DNA from: a bacterium
GTDB taxonomy: Bacteria > Patescibacteriota > Minisyncoccia > 1-14-0-10-42-19
Direction: 5' to 3'
DNA length: 64,000 bases
Assembly (NCBI GenBank): GCA_030690215.1
Contig: JAUYHD010000016.1
Span: 17,681-81,680, forward strand
Shown: in pieces, positions 13,626 to 62,179 of the stretch
Numbering within the stretch: position 1 is the stretch's first letter
Layout: the number at the start of each line of letters is the position of its first letter
The notes under the pieces: model-generated
What the model saw: only the letters and a program-made list of their open reading frames with translations
Database searches by the model: none
Told to the model about the DNA's origin: nothing
Translations under genes and position numbers: made by a program

Positions 13626-14753
13626 TTATTGGGAAAATATTCTGTCCATCTCTGATCGCACCTGCGTAGAAAATAAATCCCGTTTCGCAGAAATCTGCGC
13701 GCGGTATTTTTCTTGCAGGCGCTCTAATTCGTCTGCCACCGTAATGCCTTCTTCCCTATCAAGCATAAAACGACCGGTACGATTTGAAACTTCTTCGGCA
13801 AAAAGCGCGTATGTTTCATACTCGCGCAACAGAAGGATGAGAACGGTTTCTTTCGCGCCTGACGCCCGGTCAAACGCTGACACCCTGCTCTGCGCGCCTT
13901 CCTGTATAATCCTCACAACGAACTGGGGGTCAACGGGTATCATACCTCGCGACACGCTGATTTGCAGGTCAATAAAACCCGCCTTCAAAGCGCTTATTGT
14001 CTCCCCCGTCTCACCCGACGGATATTTTGGAGAACGTTCTATTTCATCAAATGATTCAAGAGTCCGCGTAATATCATTTGAAAGCAAAAAGAGAAATTCT
14101 GTTGAAGGCGCTTCTTCCCGAAGTACGGCGGAAGCAACCACATCAAATATATCTTTTATATGCGATGTAATAATGCTTGTCTCGTATTGCCGGCCGCGAT
14201 CTACTTCAATTTTTAATTTTGCAAGCCGTTCGCGAAGCGATAAAAATCCCAACTCGGATGCGTGAAGCGGACGATCGCCTGCAACCTCAAACAATAATCG
14301 CTTTTGAAGATTTCTGTCTTCTTCAAACGCGCTCTCAATGCCAACGCGCATCTGTTCGGACACTCCGTCAAGAATTTCTTCAAATACCGCAAAATGTTTC
14401 GCAAGCGATCGGAGCACCGTGCTTGCGAGCTCTGGATTATTACTGCGGTCAACCTGCTCTGCCGCTTTCTCCATGTGCGCTCCAAACCTCACTATCGTTT
14501 CATTTGTTTTGGGGTGTTTTTCATATGAAAGCACCACTGCTTCGCTCAAACGTTCTTCGGCAAGCATAATAAGCCGTTCTATTTTGCTTTCTCTCCCAAA
14601 TGTAAAAAGCGTTCCAATTGACTCAAAGGCGCGCTCAAATATATACAGCGGATTTTTTGCGGTCATCCCCGCCGGCGGCAAGAGCGCAAATTGCGCGTAC
14701 GCACTGCTTGCGATAAACAGAAACCCTATAAAAAAGAAATACGCATAACGCAT
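13626..14753 (-). CDS. Secreted hypothetical protein (signal peptide ...SSAYAQ)
   Basis: 375-aa ORF with cleavable signal-like N-terminus; helical composition. Confidence 0.5.
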   Translation of the reverse strand: MRYAYFFFIGFLFIASSAYAQFALLPPAGMTAKNPLYIFERAFESIGTLFTFGRESKIERLIMLAEERLSEAVVLSYEKHPKTNETIVRFGAHMEKAAEQVDRSNNPELASTVLRSLAKHFAVFEEILDGVSEQMRVGIESAFEEDRNLQKRLLFEVAGDRPLHASELGFLSLRERLAKLKIEVDRGRQYETSIITSHIKDIFDVVASAVLREEAPSTEFLFLLSNDITRTLESFDEIERSPKYPSGETGETISALKAGFIDLQISVSRGMIPVDPQFVVRIIQEGAQSRVSAFDRASGAKETVLILLLREYETYALFAEEVSNRTGRFMLDREEGITVADELERLQEKYRAQISAKRDLFSTQVRSEMDRIFSQ

Positions 14754-27852: not shown

Positions 27853-30800
27853 ATGAAAAAAAATCTGTTCGGGGTTCTGACACTTGGAATCCTGGTTATT
27901 GTATCAAGTTTCGTTTCTACATCCGATGTTGCCGTAGCAGCACCTGTCCCTGGCAGCATAACCGTGTTTGCTTCTGATACTGGTGTTAACGACGCAACCG
28001 TGGGTACGCGAATTTGGGGCAATCCTCAAAATGTTTCAAGCAGTGATGACGTGTCCGCCCAGGCAAACTTCATAGAGGACCAGGATTTGATTACGCGGTA
28101 TCTCCGCGTTGCTCCTCAATCACTATCTGCAATCCCCGCAGGAAGCACTATTACCGGCATACAAGTTAGCGTTGAAAAGAAAAGGGGGGCAGCGGTTACT
28201 GTTAGGGATTATTCTATACGCCTTTATAAATCGGCGGGTTTTATAGGAAACAACAAAGCCGATACTGGCACTAACTGGCCCGCGTCAGACCAAACCTTCA
28301 CGTATGGGGGGTCGGGAGACTTATGGGGCGCCACATGGACAAGAGACGAAGTAGTAAATAATTTGCAGGTTGGGATTTCCGCCCAAAATACTTTTAACGG
28401 AGGGGCAGGGGCCGTCATTGATTCTATTCAATTCACTATTTGGTATGAATACACTCCGCCCGCCCCAACCGTAATTGAAGCAGACAACACCGTGTTTGCT
28501 GCAACTACCGGCGTCAACGACACAACCGTGGGTACAAAAATTTGGGGTACTACCAATAATATCGCGGCAAGCGATGATGCGTACTCACAAGTAAACCTTT
28601 TGACAGGCGGAGATATATCAAGGTATCTCCGTGTTGCTCCGCAGTCACTTTCTTCAATTCCTGAAGGGAGCACAATTAAAGGCATACAAGTCAGCATTGA
28701 GAAAAGTAGAGGTACGCAATTTGTTAAAGATTATTCTATACGCCTCTACAAATCCGGAACGGGCTACATAGGCAGCGACAAAGCTAACACAAGCGTTAAC
28801 TGGCCTGCTTTAGATGAAATAGTTACCCATGGAGGTAATGGTGATTTGTGGGGGACCACATGGACCAGAGATGAAGTGGTTAATAATTTGGAAGTGGGAA
28901 TTTCCGCCCAAAACCAAACTACCACTTCAGCAGGAGCAAAGATCGATTCCATACAGTTTACTATTTGGTATGAATACACTCCGCCCGCCCCAACCGTTGA
29001 CCTAAAAGCAAACAGCGCCAACGGACCAATATCAATTGACTACAACACAGGTGCAACACTTTCGTGGGCTTCGACAAACGCAACATCGTGTGCCGCATCA
29101 AACGCATGGTCCGGAACAAAAGGCACATCAGGGTCAGAATCAACCGGAAATCTTACAGCATCAAAAACATACACGATAACGTGTACAGGGACAGGGGGAA
29201 GCGCAAATGATAGCGTTACAATAAATGTCCTCGCACCACCGCCCCCACCTCCTCCGCCACCGCCTCCTCCGCCTCCTCCGGCAACAACTGTATGCCAAGG
29301 CTCTGTAACTCTCTATCAACACATCAACTATATCGGTTATTCAGCGGGTTTTGATGTTGGCACCTACACCCTTGCACAACTTCAAGCATGCGGAGTTATT
29401 AACAACGACATATCTTCAATGAAGGTACCGAATGGCTACCAGGCAACGTTATATGATGGAGACAACTATTCAGGAATAAGTCTTACGCGAACTACTGACG
29501 ACAGCACATTGGTAGATGACGGGTTTAATGATTTAACTACATCGCTACGCGTAACAACCATTTCAACAACACCCACTCCTCCACCTCCGCCACCTCCATC
29601 GCCGGAACCTTCTCCAACTCCCCCACCGCCACCTCCTCCAACAAGCAACCTTGCTTTCCAAATTAATGACAAAATCCAAGTAACATCAGGACCTCTCAAT
29701 GTAAGAAGTTGCGCAAGCTTATCTTGCAACTCTCTTGGTATACAACCAACAGGTTCTTTGGGGTCAATTATCGGAGGCCCAACATTTGCAGATGGATTTT
29801 TCTGGTGGAATATCAATTACGATAACGCTCCGGATGGTTGGTCGGTTGAAAATTTCTTAACTCTCGTAACCTCAACTCCTCTACCACCTCCTCCACCGCC
29901 ACCGCCTCCAGCACCAGAACCTTCTCCAGCTCCACCGCCGCCACCTCCTCCAACAAGCAACCTTGCTTTCCAAATTAATGACCGTATTCAAGTAAACACA
30001 GGGAGCTCGGAATTTAATCTTAATGTCCGATCAACAGCAAATGGCACGATCGTTGGACAGCAATCAAACGGTGCGTTGGGAACTATTATCGGTGGGCCTC
30101 AAAGTGCTGGCAGCCACACATGGTGGAATGTTAATTTTGATGTAGCGCCTGATGGATGGGTTGCTGGAGATTTTCTTGTCACCAGTTCATCTCCTTCTCC
30201 AACACCTCCACCTCCGCCACCTCCTCCAGCACCGGAACCTTCTCCAACTCCCCCACCGCCACCTCCTCCAACAACAACCCTACTTTCTATTCCCGGAACC
30301 ATACAAGCAGAAAGCTATAAAGTAGGGGGCGAGGGTATTGGGTATCATGACACTACCCCAACAAACGATGGGGGCGCCGGGACTCGCAATGATGGAGTGG
30401 ATATAAAAGATGTCCCGGGTGAAGGTTTGACTATCGGATTTACAAATATCGGCGAATGGCTTGCATACGATGTAAGTGTCTCCCAAGGAGGGACATACTC
30501 TATTGATCTCCGCATCGCAAACGGAGAAACAACAAATCGTTCTCTCCACCTGGAAATAGACGGAACAAATAAAACCGGTTCGGTTACCGTGCCATCTACC
30601 GGATCATGGAACACACAAACAACTATTACAGTGCCCAATGTTTCCCTTACCCAAGGAACTCATGTATTGCGCGTTGTGTTTGACAATACCCCGCTTGATC
30701 TCAATTGGATGTTGTTTAATTTTGTTTCTTCCGGAAGTCCGTCTGCGCCTTCTGTGTCCACAAAATTCCAGATAAACGACCGCGTGCAAACAACAGACAA

Positions 30801-32835
30801 TCTTAATGTCCGCTCAATACCTTCAACTGTAACTGGGGTGGTGCTCGGCACGCACCAAACGGGATCACTCGGGACAATTATTGGCGGACCCGTTTTTGCA
30901 AACAATATTTGGTGGTGGCAAGTAAATTACGATAACAATCCTGACGGCTGGTCTGCTGAAAACTTTTTAACAAAATCAACAACGTCAGCACCACCGCCGC
31001 CGCCTCCTCCGACAACCATAGACATCAAAGCAAATAGCTCCGATGGACCAATATCCATTGCGTATAATTCAAGCGCAACACTTAGTTGGACTTCCTCAAA
31101 CACAACATCTTGCACCGCATCAAACGCATGGTCCGGAACAAAAAGCACATCGGGATCAGAATCAACCGGAAATCTTACGGAATCAAAAACATACACAATG
31201 ACCTGCACAGGAACTGGAGGAAGCGCAAATGACAGTGTCACGGTTAATGTAAATCCTCTGTCGACTCCTCCGCCTCCTCCCCCACCACCTCCATCTTCTA
31301 GCAATGAAGCACTCATATATGTAGATAATCAAAATTCCTCTGCTTCAGATTCTAACCCAGGAACAGTAACAAGCCCGCTAAGAACTATCGGCAAAGCCGC
31401 TCAACTAGCAAACTCAAAAAATAAGAGCGGAATTCCGGTACGAATTATTGTAAAAGCAGGCACATATCGAGAGTCGGTTGCATTCAATGATGAAACCGGC
31501 ATCACAACATCACCTATTACTATTGAGGGATCCCCCATCGGACAAGCAATTATTTCAGGATCAGATGTATGGACAGGATGGACTTCTACATCAGGTCTCT
31601 GGGTTCATGACTGGCCTTATGACTGGGGCGCGGTTTCCTGGCTTGGCGTACCCTCCGGAGAACTCGCAAGACGCCGCGAAATGGTATTCGTAAACGGTGA
31701 ACACTACATGCAAGCTCTTTCAACGGGAGAACTGACGGACAAAACCTTTTATGTAGATGAGGTCAACAATAAAATCTATGTAAAATCTTCCACCAATCTG
31801 AACACCTCAAAAGTAGAAGTCGGCACCCGGAAAGGAATATTCTATGCAAAGAATAGGCAAAACTTTACAATACGGGGCATGATATTCCAACACGATACCA
31901 CTGCCGGTGATTTATCTGGTGTTAATTTCGTCCTCATGAAAAACCTTGTCATAGAAGACAGTAAATTTTTGTGGAATAACTGGGGTGGGATGCAAATTAC
32001 AAGAGGTGAGGGAATTACCGTACGCAGACTCGTTGGTAATTATAATGGCGGGAAAGGAACAGAAATGGTGTTTAGCAAAAATGCCTTATGGGAAGATATA
32101 GAAAGTTCATATAACAACTGGCGCGGAGATTCGGGAGGGTTCAACCAATGGAGTGTCGCAGGTTCAAAGCACTTAAGGAACCGAGATGTTACATATCGTA
32201 ATTTTGTCGTCGCCAACAACAAAGCGAGAGGATTTTGGCTCGATTATGATAACTCTGGCATTGTTTTTGACGGTCTTATTTCTATTAATAATTATGAGAG
32301 CGGTATCTCTCTTGAAGCCAACCAGGGTCCGATACTTGTAAAAAATAGCGCAATCTGTGGGAACGGCGACTATGACGGAGTAAGAACCTCAACTTCATGG
32401 GGCGGACTTATTTCTGCAAACTCCATGAACATTACTATCCAGGATAGTGTTTTCTATCGGAACGTTGTTACTAATATTCGGACTCACGGAGCAAACATCC
32501 GACCGATCAACGATTTCGTAACAGGAGGGGTGCATGACGGAATATCGAAAAATTGGACATGGACGGGCATCGTTGATGTGGGCCAAGGCACAAATGAGTT
32601 GCTTGTGTATAGAGTAGATGACGCTACTGAATTTTTGGATACCCTTACGGTAAACAACAATATTTATTGGAACCCTACTGACCCAAATACATTCAATGCT
32701 AATGGGAGAACAGATTTTGCCGGATGGAAAACTAAAACCGGTCAAGAGCAAAACTCGGTATTTGCCGATCCAAATACTCTTTCTTTGACCAGCCAACAAA
32801 GAGCACTGCTAGACAGATGCATTGCTAGCTACTAA
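27853..32835 (+). CDS. Giant secreted multidomain surface protein (1660 aa). Signal peptide; 2x about 175-aa repeat; 2x Ig-like; poly-Pro linkers; beta/gamma-crystallin; 3x SH3b-like; CBM6-like; C-terminal right-handed beta-helix.
   Basis: Duplicated NxNGPISIxYNxxATLSWxSxNxTSCxASNAWSGTK Ig-like units (29000-29235, 31017-31255); Greek-key CQGSVTLYQHINYIGY...; CBM6-like LSIPGTIQAESYKVGGEGIGYHD...GEWLAYDV...LNWMLF; beta-helix NFTIRGMIFQHD... Confidence 0.7.
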   Translation: MKKNLFGVLTLGILVIVSSFVSTSDVAVAAPVPGSITVFASDTGVNDATVGTRIWGNPQNVSSSDDVSAQANFIEDQDLITRYLRVAPQSLSAIPAGSTITGIQVSVEKKRGAAVTVRDYSIRLYKSAGFIGNNKADTGTNWPASDQTFTYGGSGDLWGATWTRDEVVNNLQVGISAQNTFNGGAGAVIDSIQFTIWYEYTPPAPTVIEADNTVFAATTGVNDTTVGTKIWGTTNNIAASDDAYSQVNLLTGGDISRYLRVAPQSLSSIPEGSTIKGIQVSIEKSRGTQFVKDYSIRLYKSGTGYIGSDKANTSVNWPALDEIVTHGGNGDLWGTTWTRDEVVNNLEVGISAQNQTTTSAGAKIDSIQFTIWYEYTPPAPTVDLKANSANGPISIDYNTGATLSWASTNATSCAASNAWSGTKGTSGSESTGNLTASKTYTITCTGTGGSANDSVTINVLAPPPPPPPPPPPPPPPATTVCQGSVTLYQHINYIGYSAGFDVGTYTLAQLQACGVINNDISSMKVPNGYQATLYDGDNYSGISLTRTTDDSTLVDDGFNDLTTSLRVTTISTTPTPPPPPPPSPEPSPTPPPPPPPTSNLAFQINDKIQVTSGPLNVRSCASLSCNSLGIQPTGSLGSIIGGPTFADGFFWWNINYDNAPDGWSVENFLTLVTSTPLPPPPPPPPPAPEPSPAPPPPPPPTSNLAFQINDRIQVNTGSSEFNLNVRSTANGTIVGQQSNGALGTIIGGPQSAGSHTWWNVNFDVAPDGWVAGDFLVTSSSPSPTPPPPPPPPAPEPSPTPPPPPPPTTTLLSIPGTIQAESYKVGGEGIGYHDTTPTNDGGAGTRNDGVDIKDVPGEGLTIGFTNIGEWLAYDVSVSQGGTYSIDLRIANGETTNRSLHLEIDGTNKTGSVTVPSTGSWNTQTTITVPNVSLTQGTHVLRVVFDNTPLDLNWMLFNFVSSGSPSAPSVSTKFQINDRVQTTDNLNVRSIPSTVTGVVLGTHQTGSLGTIIGGPVFANNIWWWQVNYDNNPDGWSAENFLTKSTTSAPPPPPPPTTIDIKANSSDGPISIAYNSSATLSWTSSNTTSCTASNAWSGTKSTSGSESTGNLTESKTYTMTCTGTGGSANDSVTVNVNPLSTPPPPPPPPPSSSNEALIYVDNQNSSASDSNPGTVTSPLRTIGKAAQLANSKNKSGIPVRIIVKAGTYRESVAFNDETGITTSPITIEGSPIGQAIISGSDVWTGWTSTSGLWVHDWPYDWGAVSWLGVPSGELARRREMVFVNGEHYMQALSTGELTDKTFYVDEVNNKIYVKSSTNLNTSKVEVGTRKGIFYAKNRQNFTIRGMIFQHDTTAGDLSGVNFVLMKNLVIEDSKFLWNNWGGMQITRGEGITVRRLVGNYNGGKGTEMVFSKNALWEDIESSYNNWRGDSGGFNQWSVAGSKHLRNRDVTYRNFVVANNKARGFWLDYDNSGIVFDGLISINNYESGISLEANQGPILVKNSAICGNGDYDGVRTSTSWGGLISANSMNITIQDSVFYRNVVTNIRTHGANIRPINDFVTGGVHDGISKNWTWTGIVDVGQGTNELLVYRVDDATEFLDTLTVNNNIYWNPTDPNTFNANGRTDFAGWKTKTGQEQNSVFADPNTLSLTSQQRALLDRCIASY

Positions 32836-32881
32836 TCTTTATTCTCCGCAACGATCTCTGGGTTGTCAGAGTGATTAGGAA

Positions 32882-32925
32882 AAATACCCTGCATTTTATG
32901 CGGGGTATTTTTTGATTCCTCCGTA
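32882..32925 (+). terminator. Rho-independent terminator after the giant gene (ATACCCTGCATTTTATGCGGGGTATTTTTTG)
   Basis: GC stem followed by T-run. Confidence 0.6.
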
Positions 32926-32960
32926 GACAAATACTCGGCAGAACTATATAATAAAATTGT

Positions 32961-33071
32961 ATGAAAAAAGTCATAACAGGAAAGCCCGAGGATGACACGA
33001 AACCTCACAGATTGCCTCCAGTCCCATTTGCGCCAGTCAATTGGAACCCGCCCATCAAACCGGAATTCTAA
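32961..33071 (+). CDS. Small ORF A (36 aa): MKKVITGKPEDDTKPHRLPPVPFAPVNWNPPIKPEF
   Basis: One of three tandem related Pro/Gly/Trp-rich small ORFs; below the ORF-track cutoff; translated by hand. Confidence 0.35.
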   Translation: MKKVITGKPEDDTKPHRLPPVPFAPVNWNPPIKPEF

Positions 33072-33246
33072 TTTTATCGCAACATTCGGAAGTCCGACTT
33101 CCGAATTTGGACTAATGCGCAAAACCCGACCTAGCACATTTTTATTAACACGAGCGGTGTTTCGGTGTAGACACATATCTTTTAAAAAGCTATAATGAGG
33201 GTGTAATAAAAGTCGATTATTTAAATATTTAATTATTGAAAAATAT

Positions 33247-33336
33247 ATGAAAGCAAAAACTGGAAACGACCCATTTTGGCCTGGTGGTCATGGAGGACAC
33301 AAATTACCCCCAGTTGGGTGGGGTCCATTAATGTAA
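33247..33336 (+). CDS. Small ORF B (29 aa): MKAKTGNDPFWPGGHGGHKLPPVGWGPLM
   Basis: Shares LPPV and W/G/P composition with ORFs A and C. Confidence 0.35.
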   Translation: MKAKTGNDPFWPGGHGGHKLPPVGWGPLM

Positions 33337-33361
33337 GAATTAACTTTTATTTATATTTATT

Positions 33362-33541
33362 ATGAAACCTGAATTTGATATTATCTTGTTTGGACATCCA
33401 AAAAGAGACCCGGTGGATTATTTTGGCCTTGGCCGTACTGGCGGTGGAGGTCCGTCAGGACCTTGGCAGCAAGCGCCAGGCCCAGGACCCTTAGGTCCAT
33501 TGAATGGCCCGGTAGTCCCTGGGATAAAACCGGAGGATTAA
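33362..33541 (+). CDS. Small ORF C (59 aa): MKPEFDIILFGHPKRDPVDYFGLGRTGGGGPSGPWQQAPGPGPLGPLNGPVVPGIKPED
   Basis: Begins MKPEF and ends IKPED, mirroring ORF A's C-terminal IKPEF; partially collagen-like G-P-X triplets. Confidence 0.4.
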   Translation: MKPEFDIILFGHPKRDPVDYFGLGRTGGGGPSGPWQQAPGPGPLGPLNGPVVPGIKPED

Positions 33542-33548
33542 TCACCTC

Positions 33549-33598
33549 TTGACCCCGTTAGATGAGCGAGCTTTGAGAAGCTCTATCTAATGGGGCTT
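33549..33598. repeat. Palindromic REP-like element followed by a promoter-like TTGACC-17-TATACT
   Basis: CCCCGTTAGATGAGCGAGCTTTGAGAAGCTCTATCTAATGGGG then GCTTGACCTCAATAATAAAAGGATTATACT. Confidence 0.6.
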
Positions 33599-33960
33599 GA
33601 CCTCAATAATAAAAGGATTATACTGATACTTGGTATGAAAGACCCAATAATTGTTTAGCTTAATACGTTTTGTTTTTAACAAGTAAACCCACTGCTGTCT
33701 TTGGAGACAGTTTTTGTTTTCCAAAATAGCAGCGGGAGTACTTGGACCAGCAATTTTACAAAAGAGATTAATAAAGTAAGAATCTTTTAAAAACAAAAGA
33801 AAAAGAAATATGCGTTTTCTTTTGTTCCGTTCACATATTTCGCTTGCGCTGCGCGCAATCGCGAAATAAAGTGCCCCGTCGAATGACGGGGCGCGAGAGT
33901 GCGAGAAACTTTGAACGTCCGGTCATCCGACCGGACTCAAAAAGACTCGCTCACTCTCGT

Positions 33961-36192
33961 CTTTTTGAGAGTTTGATCCTAGCTCAGGATGAACGCTGGC
34001 GGCGTGGATAAGGCATGCAAGTCGTACGGTCGTGCCTCTCTATCGCTCAGCACTCCCTAAGCTCAAAGTGTAAAACGAAAAGTTCAAAACTAATGTGAAA
34101 TAATTTCAACAAAGTTGAAATTATTATTCCTCAGTTTTACGTTTTTATTTTTGAGTTTTTAGTTTGAGTGCCGAACGGCAGTGAGGCACGACAGTGGCAG
34201 ACGGGGTAGTAACACGTAGGTACATACCACTGAGACAAGAATAACCCAGAGAAATCTGGGATAATACTTGATAGTCTAGTGATCGATTTTCCCTCACAAG
34301 ATGTTTTAATTTTTAATTCTCAATTATCAATTTTCAATAAAAATTTGGAAATTGAAACTTTCTCGCCTCGCCGTAGCTTTAGCGAAGCGGAAACATTGTC
34401 CGCCAGAGGCGGATCCTCCTCCGGAGGAAAAATTCAAAACAGTCCTTGCGGGTAAAAATCGGTTACTAGTAAAGGTTCGTAAGAACCGCTCGGTGAATGG
34501 CCTGCGGGCTATCAGCTTGTTGGTGAGGTAACGGCTCACCAAGGCTATGACGGCTAGGGGGTGTGAGAGCATGGCCCCCACCAATGGAACTGAGACACGG
34601 TCCATACATCTACGGATGGCTGCAGTCGAGAATATTGGGCAATGGGCGAAAGCCTGACCCAGCGACGCCGCGTGCAGGATGAAGGCCTTCGGGCTGTAAA
34701 CTGCTTTTATGGGGGAGGAATCCCCTCCTTGAGGTTGAGTGTGGTACAATCACGCTATGTATTATGTATATATCCTGAAATTAAATAATGAAAAATTATA
34801 CATCGGATACACTGTGGATTTAAAAAGGCGTATTGTTGAACACGAAACAGGAATGAGTATGCATACTAAAAAATTTTTACCTTGCATGCTTGTTTATTAT
34901 GAAGCATACAAATCACGAAAAGATGCGATGAAGCGTGAGAAAAATCTAAAAAAATTCAAAAGTTCATACAGACAATTAAAAATACGTATTGCTTCAAGTA
35001 TATTCGACACCAAGGAGGGGATGACGTTACCCCATGAATAAGGGCTTGCTAACCTCGTGCCAGCAGCCGCGGTAATACGAGGGGCCCAAGCGTTATCCGG
35101 AATCACTGGGCGTAAAGGGTTCGTAGGGGGTTGTATTAGTCCTATGTTAAAGCCTTCGGCTTAACCGAAGAAATGCATAGGAAACGGTATAACTGGAGGG
35201 TGTGAGAGGCTGATGGAACTCACGGTGTAGGGGTGAAATCCGTTGATATCGTGGGGAACACCAAATGCGAAGGCAATCAGCTGGCGCATTCCTGACCCTG
35301 AAGAACGAAAGCGTGGGGATCGAAAAGGATTAGATACCCTTGTAGTCCACGCCCTAAACGTTGATGACTAGCTATTGGAAGTATCGACCCTTCCAGTGGC
35401 GTAGCTAACGCGTTAAGTCATCCGCCTGGGAATTACGATCGCAAGATTAAAACTCAAAGGAATAGACGGGGACTCGCACAAGCGGTGGAGCATGTGGTTC
35501 AATTCGATGATAAGCGAAAAACCTTACCAGGGCTAGAAATTCTAGTGAAGTCGACCCGAAAGGGACGATGTCTCACAAGGACACTAGGACAGGTGCTGCA
35601 TGGTTGTCGTCAGTTCGTGGTTTGAACTGTTCCCTTAAGTGGGTCAACGAACGCAACCCCCGTTGCCTGTTATACATGTCAGGCAAGACTGCCCCTCACT
35701 TTGCGCACAAGCGCAAAGTGAGTTTACTAGTTACGCCTTGCTCTAGTTTGCTAGTTTAAATTTTACAACTAGAAAACTAAAGTGAGCAGAGCGAACGTAA
35801 CTAGAAAACTCACTTTGTTCGTTTGCGAACAAAGTGAGGGGAGGAAGGTGGGGATGACGCCAAATCAGCATGGCCCTCGACGTCCTGGGCTACACACATG
35901 CTACAATGGCACGTACAAAGGGCCGCAAAAGAGCAATCTGGAGCAAATCCCATCAAAACGTGCCCTAGTTCGGATTGAGGTCTGCAACTTGACCTCATGA
36001 AGCTGGAATCGCTAGTAATCGCAGATCAGCACGCTGCGGTGAATACGTTCTCGAGTCTTGTACTCACCGCCCGTCAAGTCAGGGAAGTCGGGAGTACCCG
36101 AAGTGCCAGGTATCTGGCCCGAAGGTAAGCTCGATAACAAGGACTAAGTCGTAACAAGGCACGGCTAGCGGAAGCTGGTCGTGGATCATTAT
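33961..36192 (+). rRNA. 16S rRNA gene, about 2.23 kb, with four insertions. (a) 34063-34170 hairpin element; (b) about 34275-34480 V2 expansion; (c) about 34720-35020 GIY-YIG ORF; (d) about 35694-35848 palindromic insertion. The 3' end is ...GGATCATTATCT and lacks CCUCC.
   Basis: Conserved blocks AGAGTTTGATCCTAGCTCAG, GTGCCAGCAGCCGCGGTAATAC, GGATTAGATACCCTTGTAGTCC, GCATGTGGTTCAATTCGATG, TACACACCGCCCGTCA, AAGTCGTAACAAGG read in order. Confidence 0.9.
34757..35041 (+). CDS. GIY-YIG nuclease-family ORF embedded in the 16S rRNA V3 insertion (possible intron-encoded homing endonuclease)
   Basis: MYYVYILKLNNEKLYIGYTVDLKRRIVEHETG is a canonical GIY-YIG motif; the ORF 3' end runs into the conserved TGACGTTACC rRNA sequence. 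Confidence 0.7.
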   Translation: MYYVYILKLNNEKLYIGYTVDLKRRIVEHETGMSMHTKKFLPCMLVYYEAYKSRKDAMKREKNLKKFKSSYRQLKIRIASSIFDTKEGMTLPHE

Positions 36193-36338
36193 CTAAACTA
36201 TTTCCGATATTCATTTGATTTTTATCAAAAGAAGAAGCGGAACAGTTAGGCGATACTCCCACTGGGAGTAATAGGTGTTAGTCGCGGAGCCTTTAAATCG
36301 CGACTTGAACGGAGCAAAAGAAAACGCACATACACAAA

Positions 36339-36376
36339 GACCCCGAATCGCGTTTGACGCGACGGGGTTTTTGTTT
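36339..36376 (+). terminator. Rho-independent terminator downstream of 16S (GACCCCGAATCGCGTTTGACGCGACGGGGTTTTTG)
   Basis: The same CGCGTTTGACGCGACGG hairpin recurs at 3742-3770 and 21905-21945. Confidence 0.55.
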
Positions 36377-36378
36377 GC

Positions 36379-36507
36379 TTGACAAATAAAATAATCTTTG
36401 CTATCATGCGAGCACCTCACGTTTGAGGCCTATTTGATCGGATGACCTGTAGACCCAGGTCACACGGGGCGAGTTGCTGTAAAAAGCAAGCGCCCCTATT
36501 TTTTTTA
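36379..36507 (+). ncRNA. Candidate about 90-nt small RNA: sigma70-like promoter (TTGACA 36379-36384, 17-bp spacer, TATCAT 36402-36407) then internal hairpin then GGGGCGAGTTGCTGTAAAAAGCAAGCGCCCC + T8 terminator
   Basis: Promoter and terminator read directly; no family assignment possible. Confidence 0.3.
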
Positions 36508-36512
36508 CTTTT

Positions 36513-36590
36513 CATTGACCCAGTTAGATGAGCAAGCTTTGCGAAGCTCTATCTAACGGGGTTGACAATACTCCCCCATTCTGTAGAATA
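36513..36590 (+). promoter_or_regulatory. REP-like palindrome whose 3' arm supplies a -35 (CTAACGGGGTTGACA) for a TTGACA-17-TAGAAT promoter; about 200-nt structured leader upstream of the MoxR-vWA gene
   Basis: Sequence read directly; leader contains hairpin TGCCTTTTTCTATGCATAAAAGGCA. Confidence 0.45.
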
Positions 36591-39438: not shown

Positions 39439-39831
39439 ATGTTAATGATCAGACTACAGCGAGTAGGACGTAAAAATGACCCAAGTTTTCGGGTTGTTAT
39501 TACCGAAAAGGCAAATGCGGCAAAATCAGGCGCCTTTCTTGAAATTGTCGGGTCATATGATGCCCGCAAAGACCGTGTCCAACTCAAACAAGATCGCATC
39601 CAGCATTGGCTTTCGCATGGGGCAAAAACATCAGCCACGGTCCACAATATGCTGGTAAATGCAAAAATAATCAACGCGCCAAAAGTAAACGCATTACCCT
39701 CAAAAAAAATCAAACCGGAAGAAGCAAAAACAGAAGCCCCGGCACCAGCACAAAAAGCTGAAGAAATGGCGCCAACAGCAACAGCCGAAGCACCCGCGGA
39801 AGCAAAAGCGGAGGAGGATCCAACAGCATAA
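39439..39831 (+). CDS. rpsP: 30S ribosomal protein S16 with an Ala/Lys/Glu-rich C-terminal extension
   Basis: MLMIRLQRVGRKNDPSFRVVITE... Confidence 0.9.
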   Translation: MLMIRLQRVGRKNDPSFRVVITEKANAAKSGAFLEIVGSYDARKDRVQLKQDRIQHWLSHGAKTSATVHNMLVNAKIINAPKVNALPSKKIKPEEAKTEAPAPAQKAEEMAPTATAEAPAEAKAEEDPTA

Positions 39832-43959: not shown

Positions 43960-44095
43960 ACATTAAAAACCAAATTCCAAATAACAAATATCAAACAATA
44001 TCCAATTTTCAATAGGCAAGCCCCAAACCGTGTTTTAAATTTGTAATTTTGAATTTGTTTGAGATTTGGATTTTGGTATTTGTCATTTTATCAAA
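43960..44095. repeat. AT-rich simple-sequence region of CAAAT/ATTCCAAA-type units (family shared with 4845-4930, the trmD insert, the 16S V2 insert and 62200-62260)
   Basis: Read directly. Confidence 0.55.
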
Positions 44096-44783
44096 TCCAC
44101 CCTTTTACCTCCAGCGCTTTCCGTGCCGCCTCTTCCTGCGCTATCTGCTTTGACGGGCCTTCGCCCTCCGCGACTTTCTCCTCATCCAAAAAAATACCGA
44201 TAACAAAATGCTTATCGTGGTCAGGCCCCCACTCTTTGATAACGCTGTATGTCGGCGTAACACCGTGTCTATCCTGCGCTTCTTCCTGAAACATGCTCTT
44301 TGGGTCTTTGTATAATTTTTTCTCAATAATTTCGTCTAACTGCGGCATGAGTACGCGCTCCAAAAAATCCTTTACTTCACCATATCCCCGGTCCAGATAC
44401 AAAGCGCCCGAAAGCGCCTCAAACGTATTTGCAAGAATATATTGGCGCGCGCGTCCCATATCCTTTGACTCTCCGCGTGAAAGGAGAAGGTGGTCGCCTA
44501 CATGCAGAATGCCTGCGACTTCCGCGAGCATCTTGGTATTCACAAGAGCAGCCCGAAAGCTCGTGAGTTCCCCTTCGGGCTTTTCAGGAAAACGCAAAAA
44601 CAAAGCTTCGGTAATAACAAGCTCAATGACCGCATCGCCCAAAAATTCAAGGCGTTCATTATGCGGGTATTTCCAATCGGTGTTCTCGTTTAAATACGAA
44701 CGATGCGTAAGGGCTTCATATAACAGACTCTTGTTTATAAAGCTGACGCCGAGACTCTGCTCAAGACCGGATAAATCTTTCAT
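44091..44783 (-). CDS. rnc: Ribonuclease III
   Basis: ERLEFLGDAV signature; C-terminal dsRBD. Confidence 0.9.
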   Translation of the reverse strand: MKDLSGLEQSLGVSFINKSLLYEALTHRSYLNENTDWKYPHNERLEFLGDAVIELVITEALFLRFPEKPEGELTSFRAALVNTKMLAEVAGILHVGDHLLLSRGESKDMGRARQYILANTFEALSGALYLDRGYGEVKDFLERVLMPQLDEIIEKKLYKDPKSMFQEEAQDRHGVTPTYSVIKEWGPDHDKHFVIGIFLDEEKVAEGEGPSKQIAQEEAARKALEVKGWI

Positions 44784-44897: not shown

Positions 44898-45794
44898 TTA
44901 CTTTAATAATATCTTTAATGCTTTTTCTAATAATGGCTTAATATCAGGGTAGGTTTTTACGCCAACAACCTCATCCTGCCCGAACCAGCGCACATCATCA
45001 AGCCCCCCCGATTCTTTAAGGTGCAATTCTTTCTCTTTCGTCTCTATCAAAAAATATGTCACCCGCTTTCTGATTTTTCCTTTTTCGGGGTCGGAGGCGA
45101 CATATTCGTTCGTGCCCATCTCTTCTCCCATGCGCACATCCGCAATACCAAGCTCCTCCCGAATTTTACGCGCCGTTCCTTTTTCCACATCAACCTTGCC
45201 CGTGCCCAACTTTCCCTTGGAAAGCGTCCAGTACCCGAACACGTCATGCACAAGGGCAAACAAAAGCACATCACCCTCTCTGCGGTACACCACGCCCCCG
45301 CCAAGATGCTCTACCGGAAGTTTTGACATATCTCCCTCAAACAGCTTTTTACCGGTGTCATCTTTGCCCGGCTCGCCTATCTCTTTATATACAGTCCCCA
45401 AAACGCCATTTACAAAACGGCCGGACGATTCTCCGCCAAAGTTCTTTGCAAGCTCAATTGCTTCGTTAATCGCGACTTTCGGAGGCACCTCGTCGCGCTT
45501 GCCGAACAAAAGCTCCCATAAACCAAGGCGCAATACGTTGCGGTCCACTCGCGCGACCTGTTCAATGGGCCACTCGGGTGCCGCCTTTTCAATAATAGAA
45601 TCTATTTTTTTTCTTTTCTTGAGAACACCGTACACAAGCACCTCTGCAAAATCATCGTCATCTTCAACACCGGGCGCGAATTCCCTTGTATTACGCAGAA
45701 GCATTTCTTTTATCTGGGCGTCGTCATACCCAGTAAAATCCCATTCAAAAAGGGTTTGCATCGCGATTGATCGTGAAAGATGTCGGTTGGCCAT
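44898..45794 (-). CDS. NusB-like antitermination domain fused to a C-terminal NUDIX hydrolase domain
   Basis: N-terminus MANRHLSRSIAMQTLFEWDF...NFGGESSGRFVNGVLG (NusB); C-terminus GGGVVYRR...GKLGTGKVDVEKGTARKIREELGI (Nudix box-like). Confidence 0.65.
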   Translation of the reverse strand: MANRHLSRSIAMQTLFEWDFTGYDDAQIKEMLLRNTREFAPGVEDDDDFAEVLVYGVLKKRKKIDSIIEKAAPEWPIEQVARVDRNVLRLGLWELLFGKRDEVPPKVAINEAIELAKNFGGESSGRFVNGVLGTVYKEIGEPGKDDTGKKLFEGDMSKLPVEHLGGGVVYRREGDVLLFALVHDVFGYWTLSKGKLGTGKVDVEKGTARKIREELGIADVRMGEEMGTNEYVASDPEKGKIRKRVTYFLIETKEKELHLKESGGLDDVRWFGQDEVVGVKTYPDIKPLLEKALKILLK

Positions 45795-46583: not shown

Positions 46584-47930
46584 CTACAATGTACACTTCG
46601 GCATCTTCCATTCTTTGACCATGGCATCAACCGCCGCTTGCCCCATCGCTGTTTTTACCCCTTTTTCAAAATTGCACAATGCTATGCGGGGCCCCTTCAC
46701 AAGCCCGGGAATACTTAATGCCGAAAAGAGATTTTTCATTTTAGCTGTCCCGTATTTATTGTGGAGCCCATCAAGCACCACCGCCATAATGTCCCATGGG
46801 ATTATTTCCGTATCATTCCTTTTCACCGTCTTGCCCGCATTCGTATCAATATACACATCAAGCAATGTCAAAGAGAAATCGCTCTTGAACGCCGCGACCT
46901 CTTTTGAAAATCCGGGAAAGTTATTATTAGTCGCGAATACATTAACGCCTACCGCGCGCCCGCACCGAAGAGCCGTATAATGAGGAGTAAACGCTCCCGG
47001 ATAAAGCACGTCCATATGATCATAAAATGGGAATTTCGTTCCTCTGCCCATCTCGTAATACGCTATCCAATGATCCCCCGGATTTGTAATATCAAATTGA
47101 TTCCATACGCTCTGGAGAATCTCTGCTTTCATACCCGCACCGCACCCTGCACCGCACGTGGTCGGCGCAACCCCAACTATCGCCGTCTTTACCCCGCGAT
47201 GATCGTCAAAATAAGGGCCCGCAACCGAACCATAGAGCGTGGTATATGTTTGCCTACATACCGCATACCACTTCATAAACCTAGTAACATCTCCCAGTGA
47301 ATATTTGCTTGTGGGTGGCGCGTAGAATGAGACAAGCGGCAACGAATAACCATGTCGGGTAAATGTCCCTTTGTGCCCATCATATGTGACTATTCCATGG
47401 TCTTTAGCAAGCCCCGCTGTCGTATTTGAAGGTGGAGGCGGGGTCACGGTAGAAGAAAACGATTCTACTTTCATAGAAGACATCTTGTCGTTCCATCCAT
47501 CGTCTACCAATGTTGAATCACCTACGGTCCGCTTGATTGAAGCTCCGCCAAAATTATCAAGATTATACAAAATAACACGATACCCCGACGGAACCCGAAA
47601 GGAAGAAATTGTATTATTTGAAATCCCACACGCTTTGAGTTTTGCGAGCGTGTATTCTCCTGGGCCGAATCCTGCCGAAGCCCCCTTAAAATTGATATCT
47701 ACATACACTCGTACTGGGCCGTTACATACCTTCAATGAGGGTTGCTCTATAGCTGACGGGAATGAAAATCTAAGGAACCAAGGTACGGCCGAGTAATTAA
47801 ATGGACCATTAAAATTCATCTGAATAAAAATGCTGATCCCTATCAAGACAGAAAATGCAAAAAAAACAAGCGTGTGTTTCCCCGTATTTTTAATATTTTT
47901 ATCCAAAAATTTTTTTAGCGCCTTGAACAT
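46584..47930 (-). CDS. Secreted/membrane-anchored protein with a beta/gamma-crystallin domain paralogous to that of the giant protein, plus a 290-aa C-terminal domain of unknown function
   Basis: VCNGPVRVYVDINFKGASAGFGPGEYTLAKLKACGISNNTISSFRVPSGYRVILYNLDNFGGASIKRTVGDSTLVDDGWND against giant-protein ...DDSTLVDDGFND. Confidence 0.55.
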   Translation of the reverse strand: MFKALKKFLDKNIKNTGKHTLVFFAFSVLIGISIFIQMNFNGPFNYSAVPWFLRFSFPSAIEQPSLKVCNGPVRVYVDINFKGASAGFGPGEYTLAKLKACGISNNTISSFRVPSGYRVILYNLDNFGGASIKRTVGDSTLVDDGWNDKMSSMKVESFSSTVTPPPPSNTTAGLAKDHGIVTYDGHKGTFTRHGYSLPLVSFYAPPTSKYSLGDVTRFMKWYAVCRQTYTTLYGSVAGPYFDDHRGVKTAIVGVAPTTCGAGCGAGMKAEILQSVWNQFDITNPGDHWIAYYEMGRGTKFPFYDHMDVLYPGAFTPHYTALRCGRAVGVNVFATNNNFPGFSKEVAAFKSDFSLTLLDVYIDTNAGKTVKRNDTEIIPWDIMAVVLDGLHNKYGTAKMKNLFSALSIPGLVKGPRIALCNFEKGVKTAMGQAAVDAMVKEWKMPKCTL

Positions 47931-60694: not shown

Positions 60695-62179
60695 TTATGA
60701 TAACATCTTTTTCAATAATTCCTGAAGCATCGCGGGGTTGGCTGATCCTTTTGTCGCCCTCATCGTCTGCCCCACCAAAAACTTAAACGCATTTTCTTTG
60801 CCTTTTTTAATATCGGCGACAGCGTCGGGGTTTTCTTCAATAATTTTCTTAATTATTTTTTCTAGCTCGCCCGTGTCGCTCACCTGGCGCAATCCTTTTT
60901 CATCAACAATTTGCGATGGATCACCTCCTTTTTCAACCATCTCTAACAACACGTCTTTTGCAACACGGGAAGATACTTCGTTCGCGTGTATCATCTTTAT
61001 TAGTTCTGCAAAATTTTCGGGGGTTACCAAAAGCTCTCCCCACGGGATTTCTTTTTCTTTTACAATCCCCCGCAGGTCAGAGGTTAAATAATTCAGCGCG
61101 GTTTTCTTTATTTTTTCCTTATTTCCGCCCGTCACCCATTCAGATAATTCAGAAAGGCCTGCCTCTAAAAACGCGAGGAACGCCGTATCGTCAAGCGCCA
61201 TGATAAGCGCGTCATCCGAAAGCCCGTATTCGGCAGTAAGGCGCGCGCGCCTCTGGTATGGAAGCTCCGGCAATTCCGCTTTGAGTATTTCTATATCAAA
61301 TTCTTTGTGCGGATACACGGGAGGCAGGTCGGGTTCGGGAAAATACCGATAATCATGCGCTTCTTCTTTTGAGCGCTGGGAAAATGTTTTTTGTTTTTCT
61401 TCATCCCATCCGCGCGTCTCTTGTGTTACTTTTTCTCCTTTCTCCAACAATTCCCCTTGGCGCTTAATTTCGTAGGTGATTGCGCGTTCCACCGCACGAA
61501 ATGAATTTAAATTTTTTACCTCCACCTTCGTTCCAAGTTTTATTTTTGAAGTTTGATCATTAGCATTTGTTTGAAAATTGTCTGCCGGAAGCAGACTGAT
61601 ATTCGCTTCAATCCGGAGTTGCCCTTTTTCCATATCGGCATCAGACGCACCCAAATACCGCAACAACCGTTGGAACTCTTCGGAAAATTCGCGGACTTCA
61701 GAAGCGCTCGTAAAGTCGGGCTCCGTTACCATTTCCATCAACGGAACGCCTGCGCGATTAAAATCAACGAGAGTCGCCTGTTTTTCGTGCACAAGTTTGC
61801 CCGCGTCTTCTTCCAGGTGCACTCGCGTAATGCGGATTTCTTTTTGGACTTTCGAAAGATAAAGTTTGCCGTGCTCTACGAACGGATGCTTATACTGCGA
61901 AATTTGGTATCCTTTCGGCAAATCGGGATAAAAATAATTTTTACGATCAAACTGGGAATATTCGGATATCGTGCCATCAAGCGCAAGACCGATTCGCAAC
62001 ACATGGCGGATTGCTTCTTTATTTGCGACAGGCAATATACCCGGATGACCCATACACACAGGACAGACATTGATATTAGGATGCGCCTCATTCGGATCAT
62101 TTAAAGAATCGCAAAACATCTTTGTTTTGGTCTTGAGTTCCGCATGTATTTCTAGTCCAATTGTGGGTTGATATCCCAT
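60695..62179 (-). CDS. gatB: Asp-tRNA(Asn)/Glu-tRNA(Gln) amidotransferase subunit B
   Basis: MGYQPTIGLEIHAEL...CPVCMGHPG zinc site; C-terminal YqeY-like domain. Confidence 0.9.
   Translation of the reverse strand: MGYQPTIGLEIHAELKTKTKMFCDSLNDPNEAHPNINVCPVCMGHPGILPVANKEAIRHVLRIGLALDGTISEYSQFDRKNYFYPDLPKGYQISQYKHPFVEHGKLYLSKVQKEIRITRVHLEEDAGKLVHEKQATLVDFNRAGVPLMEMVTEPDFTSASEVREFSEEFQRLLRYLGASDADMEKGQLRIEANISLLPADNFQTNANDQTSKIKLGTKVEVKNLNSFRAVERAITYEIKRQGELLEKGEKVTQETRGWDEEKQKTFSQRSKEEAHDYRYFPEPDLPPVYPHKEFDIEILKAELPELPYQRRARLTAEYGLSDDALIMALDDTAFLAFLEAGLSELSEWVTGGNKEKIKKTALNYLTSDLRGIVKEKEIPWGELLVTPENFAELIKMIHANEVSSRVAKDVLLEMVEKGGDPSQIVDEKGLRQVSDTGELEKIIKKIIEENPDAVADIKKGKENAFKFLVGQTMRATKGSANPAMLQELLKKMLS

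Follow-up and report, generated by a model that had tools for sequence, protein, structure and literature searches.

Three tandem small open reading frames upstream of a patescibacterial 16S rRNA gene as a candidate family of proline-, glycine- and tryptophan-rich micro-proteins

Do three very short open reading frames lying between a giant surface-protein gene and a 16S rRNA gene encode proteins, or are they frames that happen to be open? The question arises at positions 32,961 to 33,541 of a 64,000-nucleotide stretch of the 122-kb contig JAUYHD010000016.1 (positions 17,681 to 81,680, assembly GCA_030690215.1) from a bacterium of the Patescibacteriota, the whole of which is referred to here as the window. 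Genomes of the candidate phyla radiation (CPR, or Patescibacteria) are tiny and carry a large share of genes to which no function has been assigned, and because annotation pipelines skip open reading frames (ORFs) this short, their small-protein complement is essentially unexplored. The three small ORFs (sORFs) A, B and C share a strand, each occupying a different frame (Table 1), and sit in a 1125-nt spacer between the gene for a 1660-aa surface protein (27853-32835) and the 16S rRNA gene (33961-36196). An earlier examination of the letters, hereafter the sequence-only reading, had proposed that they form a related family of peptides, and its coordinates, lengths, strand, sequences and flanking genes proved correct on re-examination. 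We consider it probable that A, B and C belong to a genuine lineage-restricted family of small disordered proteins rich in proline, glycine and tryptophan, which would be served by two dedicated strong promoters and would diversify by tandem duplication combined with in-frame gain and loss of modules.

Existing annotation treats the cluster unevenly. The NCBI annotation covers C alone of the three (MDP2676384.1, hypothetical protein). A contig of the Logan assembly, which derives from the same sample (SRR13727534), is identical to the window, and there the gene caller reported B, C and a 114-aa antisense ORF, not A. Searches with genes at the window's edges led only to short Logan contigs from this sample.

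Relatedness of the peptides within and beyond the window

The motifs to which the sequence-only reading had drawn attention are all present and recur beyond chance. When all six frames of the 64 kb are translated, KPE[DF] is found five times, four of these within A and C, and H[KR]L[PS]P twice, once each in A and B. The claimed compositional bias is also borne out, with proline, glycine and tryptophan making up 21%, 17% and 3.2% of the peptides compared with 4.7%, 7.2% and 1.5% of the window's proteins. Other suggestions held only in part: the partial collagen-like triplets are a weak feature, the longest run in a G-x-x register being four triplets in C and one or two in A and B, and the genome described as AT-rich is only mildly so, at 43% GC over the window. 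Stretches occurring within the predicted sORF products include VITGKPEDDTKPHR, TGNDPFWPGGHGGHK and DPVDYFGLGR. The six-frame translation of the window contains no further copies of the family; an exact occurrence of GATCACCTCCTT at 60919 lies antisense within gatB and is coincidental.

In composition-preserving shuffles confined to the window, A and B are significantly similar (z 3.5), A and C marginally so (z 1.8), and B and C dissimilar (z -1.3). The window by itself thus only partly demonstrates three related ORFs, since only the A-B comparison reaches significance, and the remainder of the proposed relationship depends on relatives from elsewhere.

One such relative locus was found when phmmer (HMMER) was run exhaustively over 1.84 billion representatives. 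It comprises one true relative, a 57-aa protein designated P0003 (MKKVITGKPEFDIIMLGHPKRDPIGGWPFGLGGGGPSGPWNDTKPHRLPPRLDGPLM; E = 2.9e-6), encoded on a 342-nt soil-metagenome contig (L002; GCA_900218215.1, ORJL01) that belongs to an independent New York State environmental metagenome assembly (10.1101/2021.01.19.427289). P0003 is a mosaic that combines an A-type N-terminus (MKKVITGKPE), a C-type body (KPEFDII..GHPKRDP..GGGGPSGPW), the central module of A (DTKPHRLPP) and the C-terminus of B (GPLM*, the asterisk denoting a stop). On its 5′ side the same contig carries the 3′ end of a partial sORF, U (...PKRKSPGPGPLNPRRDPFWFSDGDYGRHKLSPVPGAKEGRTTI*), which combines C-like (PKR, PGPGPL) with B-like (DPFW...HKL.PV) modules. 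The order on the soil contig is that of the window, namely a B-like sORF, its stop, an AT-rich spacer of 20-25 nt, an ATG and a C-like sORF. A further phmmer match, a 660-aa protein containing seven repeats of PVDGFGLIKMGIRAPTSGW, is an unrelated repeat protein whose score was inflated by repetition.

All five peptides (A, B, C, P0003 and U) can be aligned over their full length with indels, and shuffle z-scores across the two loci are 15 for C-P0003, 7.4 for A-P0003, 5.9 for B-U, 4.2 for C-U and 3.5 for B-P0003. P0003 and U therefore bridge A, B and C statistically and join them into one family. The correspondence is modular: MKKVITGKPE and DTKPHRLPP of A are identical in P0003; DPFW...HKLPPV...GPLM* of B matches U (RDPFW...HKLSPV) and the C-terminus of P0003 (GPLM*); and C shares KPEFDII, GHPKRDP and GGGGPSGPW with P0003, to which it is 62% identical. 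A has the appearance of a P0003-type gene that has lost 30 codons in frame and acquired a different C-terminus, the indel spanning 30 alignment columns and placing D11 of A opposite N41 of P0003. These relationships would be accounted for by an ancestral peptide of about 57 aa with the organization MK(KVITG)KPE[FD]D - II..GHPKRDP..W - GLGGGGPSGPW - (DTKP)H[RK]LPPV - ..GP[LV]M* or P.IKPE[FD]*, which may have diversified through tandem duplication that included its promoter, together with in-frame loss and gain of modules.

The family is otherwise scarce. When 5.8 billion protein clusters were searched by word index, the queries being C, P0003 and a five-sequence profile, known sequences alone were returned. 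An alignment of C and P0003 found no match in GTDB representative genomes, JGI metagenomes or viral contigs, an alignment of A and P0003 found none in viral contigs, and tblastn found none among plasmids and phages. The one match to the A/P0003 alignment in the JGI metagenomes was rejected, being a chance DDTKPHRL that is read in an alternative frame where a 285-aa ORF ends in GC-rich DNA. With no extra copies in the window and none in the viral, plasmid and phage collections, the suggestion of a mobile micro-gene family finds no support. Part of the scarcity is explained by the organism having no close sequenced relative; all window proteins tested are singletons when clustered at 90% identity. 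The soil contig, at 342 nt, carries no flanking context that would bear on a further suggestion of the sequence-only reading, namely surface-layer components acting with the giant neighbour.

Selection on the reading frames

The soil contig permits a comparison of codon positions. Six ungapped nucleotide blocks can be aligned between the window and this contig (blastn alone gave three), comprising 213 nt or 71 codons, and their 48 differences are distributed 13/9/26 over codon positions 1, 2 and 3. In the proposed frames the proportion of synonymous differences (pS) is 0.47 and that of non-synonymous differences (pN) is 0.15, giving a pN/pS of 0.33 (Fisher p = 1.1e-5), and these frames contain no stops. 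Of the five other frames, four yield pN/pS values of 1.1-2.7, and the antisense frame whose third positions coincide with those of the proposed frames gives 0.37, as the geometry predicts, but contains four stops. Taken singly, A and P0003 differ over 19 codons by five synonymous and no non-synonymous changes (Fisher p = 2e-4), C and P0003 have an omega of 0.23 over 34 codons, and B and U alone have an omega of 0.47, which is not significant. The synonymous divergence (dS) between the window and the soil contig is about 0.7. This frame-specific pattern is good evidence, from a small sample, that selection acts on the peptides rather than at the level of DNA or RNA. With this single comparator, a homologue exists elsewhere, the frame is kept, and dN/dS in that frame specifically is below 1, which are three of the signs by which coding was operationally defined. 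The sequence-only reading had named the absence of both homologues and purifying selection as grounds for discarding its interpretation; what was found instead is a homologous locus and a pN/pS of 0.33.

An entirely different account would hold that the frames are open by chance in GC-rich spacer DNA, or that the region is a structured noncoding RNA or rRNA-leader element, with the shared motifs reflecting repeats at the DNA level. In the GC-rich part of C several frames are indeed open on either strand, 16S is close to the sORFs, and the RNA of C folds somewhat better than its shuffles (z -2.4). We regard this account as very unlikely and already largely refuted. Against it stand the codon-position pattern and the frame-specific pN/pS. 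The KPE and HxLPPV motifs are moreover encoded by different codons in the paralogues, HRLPPV of A and HKLPPV of B differing in the codons for L, P and V. A structured RNA at C was considered and rejected: the folding z-score is -5.1 with the downstream hairpin and -2.4 for the ORF alone, whereas the corresponding region of the soil contig has a z of -1.3 and a different pairing, such that the fold is not conserved. Rfam models applied to the region returned only sub-threshold noise, and the likely rRNA promoter, the boxA-like motif and the processing stem are all situated downstream of the sORFs.

The same comparison bears on the antisense ORF reported for this region (32832-33176, minus strand), which overlaps A and has no family match. 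The third positions that vary between A and P0003 are the first codon positions of the antisense ORF, and on these two grounds we reject it as a probably spurious call that masks A.

Transcription signals and the boundary with the rRNA unit

The predicted signals in the spacer are collected in Table 1.

Table 1. The three sORFs and predicted signals in the spacer upstream of the 16S rRNA gene (positions in the window)
Feature	Position	Strand	Size	Description
Intrinsic terminator of the 1660-aa gene	32880-32912	+		15-bp stem followed by a T-run; inverted repeat, 93% complementary
Promoter-like P1	32924-32952	+		TAGACA-17-TATAAT, 11/12 consensus; ATG of A 9 nt past the -10 box
sORF A	32961-33071	+	36 aa	MKKVITGKPEDDTKPHRLPPVPFAPVNWNPPIKPEF; C-terminus IKPEF*
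Hairpin after A	33084-33106	+	11 bp	Perfect stem, 100% complementary, followed by TTT only; weak terminator-like 3′ end
Promoter-like P2	33168-33196	+		TAGACA-17-TATAAT, 11/12 consensus; 50 nt before B
sORF B	33247-33336	+	29 aa	MKAKTGNDPFWPGGHGGHKLPPVGWGPLM
sORF C	33362-33541	+	59 aa	MKPEFDIILFGHPKRDPVDYFGLGRTGGGGPSGPWQQAPGPGPLGPLNGPVVPGIKPED; begins 25 nt past B
47-nt hairpin element	33549-33595	+	47 nt	Directly after C; fold z -4.4; second copy at 36515-36561, 91% identical
Promoter-like P3	33597-33624	+		TTGACC-16-TATACT; likely 16S rRNA promoter (predicted)
boxA-like motif	about 33675-33685	+		TTTTTAACAA
Pre-16S processing stem	33808-33833 / 36306-36331		26 nt	92% complementary, brackets 16S; expected RNase III stem

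The terminator separates the upstream surface-protein gene from the sORF cluster, and the string TAGACA-N17-TATAAT occurs twice in the 64 kb (0.03 occurrences expected), once before A and once before B. Beyond the hexamers, P1 and P2 have additional bases in common (GTAGACA.ATA ... CTATAAT). Immediately 3′ of the -10 box of P2 (33197-33225) lies TGTAATAAAAGTCGAT, which resembles the start of A, TGTATGAAAAAAGTCATA, and may be a decayed leaderless MKKV start; together with the shared promoter bases, this suggests that promoter and gene were duplicated as a cassette. We envisage two transcription units that would be separate from that of 16S, both driven by near-consensus promoters of the sigma-70 type, one leading from P1 into A and the other from P2 through B and C. 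A leaderless or nearly leaderless mRNA for A is plausible, since genes of the window commonly have a -10-like box at 5-10 nt from the ATG on its 5′ side, and P2 would drive a bicistronic B-C transcript whose AT-rich leader, about 44 nt long, would have no Shine-Dalgarno (SD) sequence.

Many confidently predicted genes of the window lack an SD and have a TAnnnT box of this kind at the same short distance of 5-10 nt from the ATG (for example 13626-14753 on the minus strand, those starting at 39439, 56810 and 59306, and 60695-62179 on the minus strand), which suggests that leaderless mRNAs are widespread in this organism. The 3′ tail of its 16S rRNA (about 36180-36200) reads GGATCATTATCTAAAC, not GGATCACCTCCTT, and the CCUCC anti-Shine-Dalgarno sequence is on this account apparently missing; GGAGG-like SDs nonetheless precede about nine of 37 window genes.

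The 47-nt hairpin element that follows C occurs in only two copies in the window, which flank 16S. Each begins with TTGACC and abuts a promoter-like site, TTGACC-16-TATACT before 16S and TTGACA-17-TAGAAT before a MoxR-like gene at 36799. As a pair, the copies could represent a shared operator, an insulator or terminator, or a mini-repeat element; the copy at C probably bounds or insulates the B-C unit on its 3′ side, or else acts as the operator of the next promoter. P3, the boxA-like motif and the processing stem are each found beyond C, which places the sORFs upstream of the rRNA unit and outside its processed leader, so that transcription of the region solely as an rRNA leader, an alternative raised by the sequence-only reading, is unlikely. 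Genes for RNase III and NusB are also present in the window (44091-44783 and 44898-45794). A seven-codon mini-ORF, MKDPIIV* (33636-33659), lies just 3′ of the putative 16S promoter, and the context of its ATG, TTGGTATGAAA, loosely resembles that of C, probably by coincidence.

These boundaries also bear on a regulatory function. The sORFs lie on the 16S strand directly upstream of 16S, A and B contain the motifs LPPV and NPPI, and neither the hairpin after A nor that after C has a U-tract, all of which would suit leader peptides whose proline-rich translation, dependent on elongation factor P (EF-P), is coupled to read-through of the hairpins into 16S in the manner of a sensor of translation capacity. 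We give this scheme almost no credence: C has no PP motif, 16S has its own promoter-like site and boxA-like motif, the same hairpin element also precedes the unrelated MoxR-like gene, and conservation extends over whole peptides instead of a single stalling motif.

A more serious competitor grants that the sequences are related and proposes that they are young or decaying, a P0003-like gene having been duplicated in the pre-16S spacer to leave A and B as remnants, with C or none of them functional. It would account for the extreme rarity of the family, for A as a deletion derivative of a P0003-type gene, for the possible MKKV relic past P2, for the weak B-C and A-C similarity within the window, and for the lack of significance in the comparison of B with U alone. 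Against it stand the purely synonymous differences between A and P0003, a deletion in A that is in frame, near-consensus promoters that are intact for both A and B-C, and a pair of B-like and C-like sORFs kept in a second organism, with stop and start in the same places, at a dS of about 0.7. We consider decay of this kind improbable.

The preferred reading of a genuine, functional family has its own weaknesses. Extreme scarcity is also to be expected of young or dispensable ORFs; all of the selection statistics derive from one 342-nt outside locus and from 71 codons chosen partly by amino-acid similarity; C is contained in a patch of 58-60% GC in which several frames are open; an SD is missing from both B and C; the hairpins 3′ of A and C have no proper U-tract; and the mode of action suggested below is drawn from motif resemblance.

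The surroundings of the cluster have the character of a CPR/Patescibacteria genome, as judged from the domains DUF5671 and DUF5667, the expanded 16S and the housekeeping genes nearby. The 16S gene is some 700 nt longer than the bacterial model and, from this excess, carries several insertions. No 23S, 5S or tRNA gene follows it within the window; its trailer ends in a terminator at about 36341-36378, after which, at about 36380-36510, come a TTGACA-17-TATCAT promoter-like site and a strongly structured stretch of roughly 100 nt (z -4.45) closed by a canonical terminator of GC-stem and T8. This stretch, which Rfam does not match, is a candidate small RNA gene. On the other side of the cluster, the 1660-aa protein contains CBM35, SH3_3, beta-helix and crystallin-like domains and poly-Pro linkers. 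Its internal duplications comprise a pair of N-terminal repeats, each of about 190 aa, a pair of Ig-like modules ("ANSANGPISIDYN...") and a set of four SH3-like modules (FQIND...). Long poly-Pro linkers join these duplicated modules, after which come the CBM35 domain and a right-handed beta-helix. A second protein containing a beta/gamma-crystallin domain is encoded at 46584-47930.

Peptide properties, possible roles and comparison with known systems

What sort of proteins would these be? None of the five peptides contains a hydrophobic segment, the maximal Kyte-Doolittle mean over 11 residues being at most 0.67 and the grand average of hydropathy between -0.5 and -1.3. The peptides lack cysteine, and their net charge lies between -1 and +3, except for the partial U at +5. 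AlphaFold2, supplied with the family alignment, gives a low-confidence model that shows no secondary structure, with a predicted local distance difference test (pLDDT) score of 54. EF-P, which proline-rich sequences need for their translation, is encoded in the window, in keeping with a coding reading. The statement that no known peptide family fits has held up, as no match was obtained in Pfam, NCBIfam, PHROGs or PADLOC at E <= 10, nor in the PDB with a family profile; a literature search for comparable families found none.

Adjacent paralogous small genes whose ends are conserved and whose cores vary invite comparison with precursors of secreted and perhaps modified peptides, as the sequence-only reading had proposed. 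On such a view the peptides would yield a ribosomally synthesized and post-translationally modified peptide (RiPP), a bacteriocin, a pheromone or a host-directed effector of an episymbiotic CPR cell, the termini MK..KPE[FD]D and IKPE[FD]* would be recognition sequences, and the machinery would be encoded elsewhere; cooperation with the giant neighbour, a surface protein with SH3_3, CBM35 and beta-helix domains, might also be imagined. Richness in proline, glycine and tryptophan is found in several peptide natural-product cores. Hydropathy gives no indication of a signal peptide, however, and there is neither a double-glycine leader context nor a core rich in Cys, Ser or Thr. The window encodes no RiPP maturation enzyme, protease or exporter among those sought (radical-SAM, cyclase, lasso B/C, prolyl oligopeptidase and peptidase-ABC), Pfam having assigned 39 of its larger ORFs only to genes of housekeeping, surface-protein, DUF or glycoside hydrolase type. 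P0003, unlike C, has a ring acceptor of the lasso type (D/E at core positions 7-9). A precursor function is in our view quite unlikely, and the original suggestion of secreted or modified peptides thereby loses its footing.

The absence of export signals, modifiable residues and partner enzymes, together with a conserved core of polyproline-II (PPII) type, favours instead a mode of action without modification. The best-conserved core of the family is H-[RK]-L-P-P-V, of the hydrophobic-P-x-hydrophobic-P type, and we tentatively suggest, by analogy with such motifs and as an idea more apt to fail than to hold, that the peptides might act unmodified as soluble PPII-type linear-motif ligands that bind and modulate a protein partner. 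The claim that the sORFs are coding is much stronger than this claim about how their products act. With a slender chance of being right, one may imagine further that these are a hitherto overlooked class of strongly expressed modular micro-proteins, specific to a CPR lineage, with a dedicated role, whose specificities arise from in-frame shuffling of modules between tandem paralogues; examples of such roles would be effectors or ligands at the episymbiont-host interface or cell surface that work with the giant SH3/CBM/beta-helix protein, or metal-binding peptides based on His, Gly and Trp.

The locus offers a case in which sequence by itself can validate sORFs, through frame-specific patterns at synonymous sites together with dedicated promoters, and it adds a sequence-novel family of disordered proline-, glycine- and tryptophan-rich micro-proteins that would diversify through shuffling of modules. 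The family has been seen in two organisms only, which limits the importance of the case.

Comparison with known systems helps to place the family. One organizational parallel is with the tandem precursor arrays of RiPPs (lasso, cyanobactin and MSDIN-type), which, like A-C, consist of adjacent paralogous small ORFs with conserved termini, a variable middle and richness in proline, glycine and tryptophan. Unlike these arrays, A-C have no maturation, protease or export genes within 64 kb. Nor is a leader/core junction conserved among them; Cys is absent, and Ser and Thr are scarce. Lasso precursors have Thr at leader position -2, Gly, Ala, Ser or Cys at core position 1 and Asp or Glu at core positions 7-9; the candidate junction in C (..GRT-GGGGPSGPWQQ) has no D/E at 7-9, and P0003, with a possible G...D9, has no Thr at -2.

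Resemblances to antimicrobial peptides, class I SH3 ligands, the prion protein (PrP), Trp-cage and collagen are a matter of composition. Proline-rich antimicrobial peptides (apidaecin and oncocin) and those rich in Trp and Pro (indolicidin and tritrpticin) are, like A-C, short and unstructured, and A-C share with them basic residues next to PP (KPHRLPPVPF) and elements such as PFWP and GPW; those peptides are strongly cationic, whereas A-C are not (net charge -1 to +3), have no PRP repeats or export signal, and are of bacterial chromosomal origin. HRLPPVP in A fits the hydrophobic-P-x-hydrophobic-P core of eukaryotic-type class I SH3 ligands (+x-hydrophobic-P-x-hydrophobic-P) after a basic residue, a resemblance of motif without homology; the SH3_3 (bacterial SH3b) domains of the neighbour are of a kind known to bind cell walls and not PxxP motifs. 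PGGHGGH...GWG in B is compositionally like the copper-binding PrP octarepeat (PHGGGWGQ), without homology or regularity of repeats, and GGPSG..PP recalls the Trp-cage in the same compositional sense. C has Gly/Pro stretches (GPSGPW, GPGPLGPLNGP) in the manner of bacterial collagen-like proteins (PF01391); unlike these, it has no Pfam match at E <= 10, its longest G-x-x run is four, and it is far too short for a triple helix.

A further comparison is with the lineage-restricted small proteins of bacteria known from comparative genomics or Ribo-seq, which, like A-C, are shorter than 60 aa, mostly unannotated, found by conservation and synonymous-site patterns, equipped with their own promoters and devoid of known domains. 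Whereas most characterized bacterial small proteins are single-copy, hydrophobic and membrane-associated, A-C are tandem, hydrophilic, disordered and rich in Pro, Gly and Trp. The family is thus new at the level of sequence and, as a kind, is another lineage-specific family of bacterial micro-proteins.

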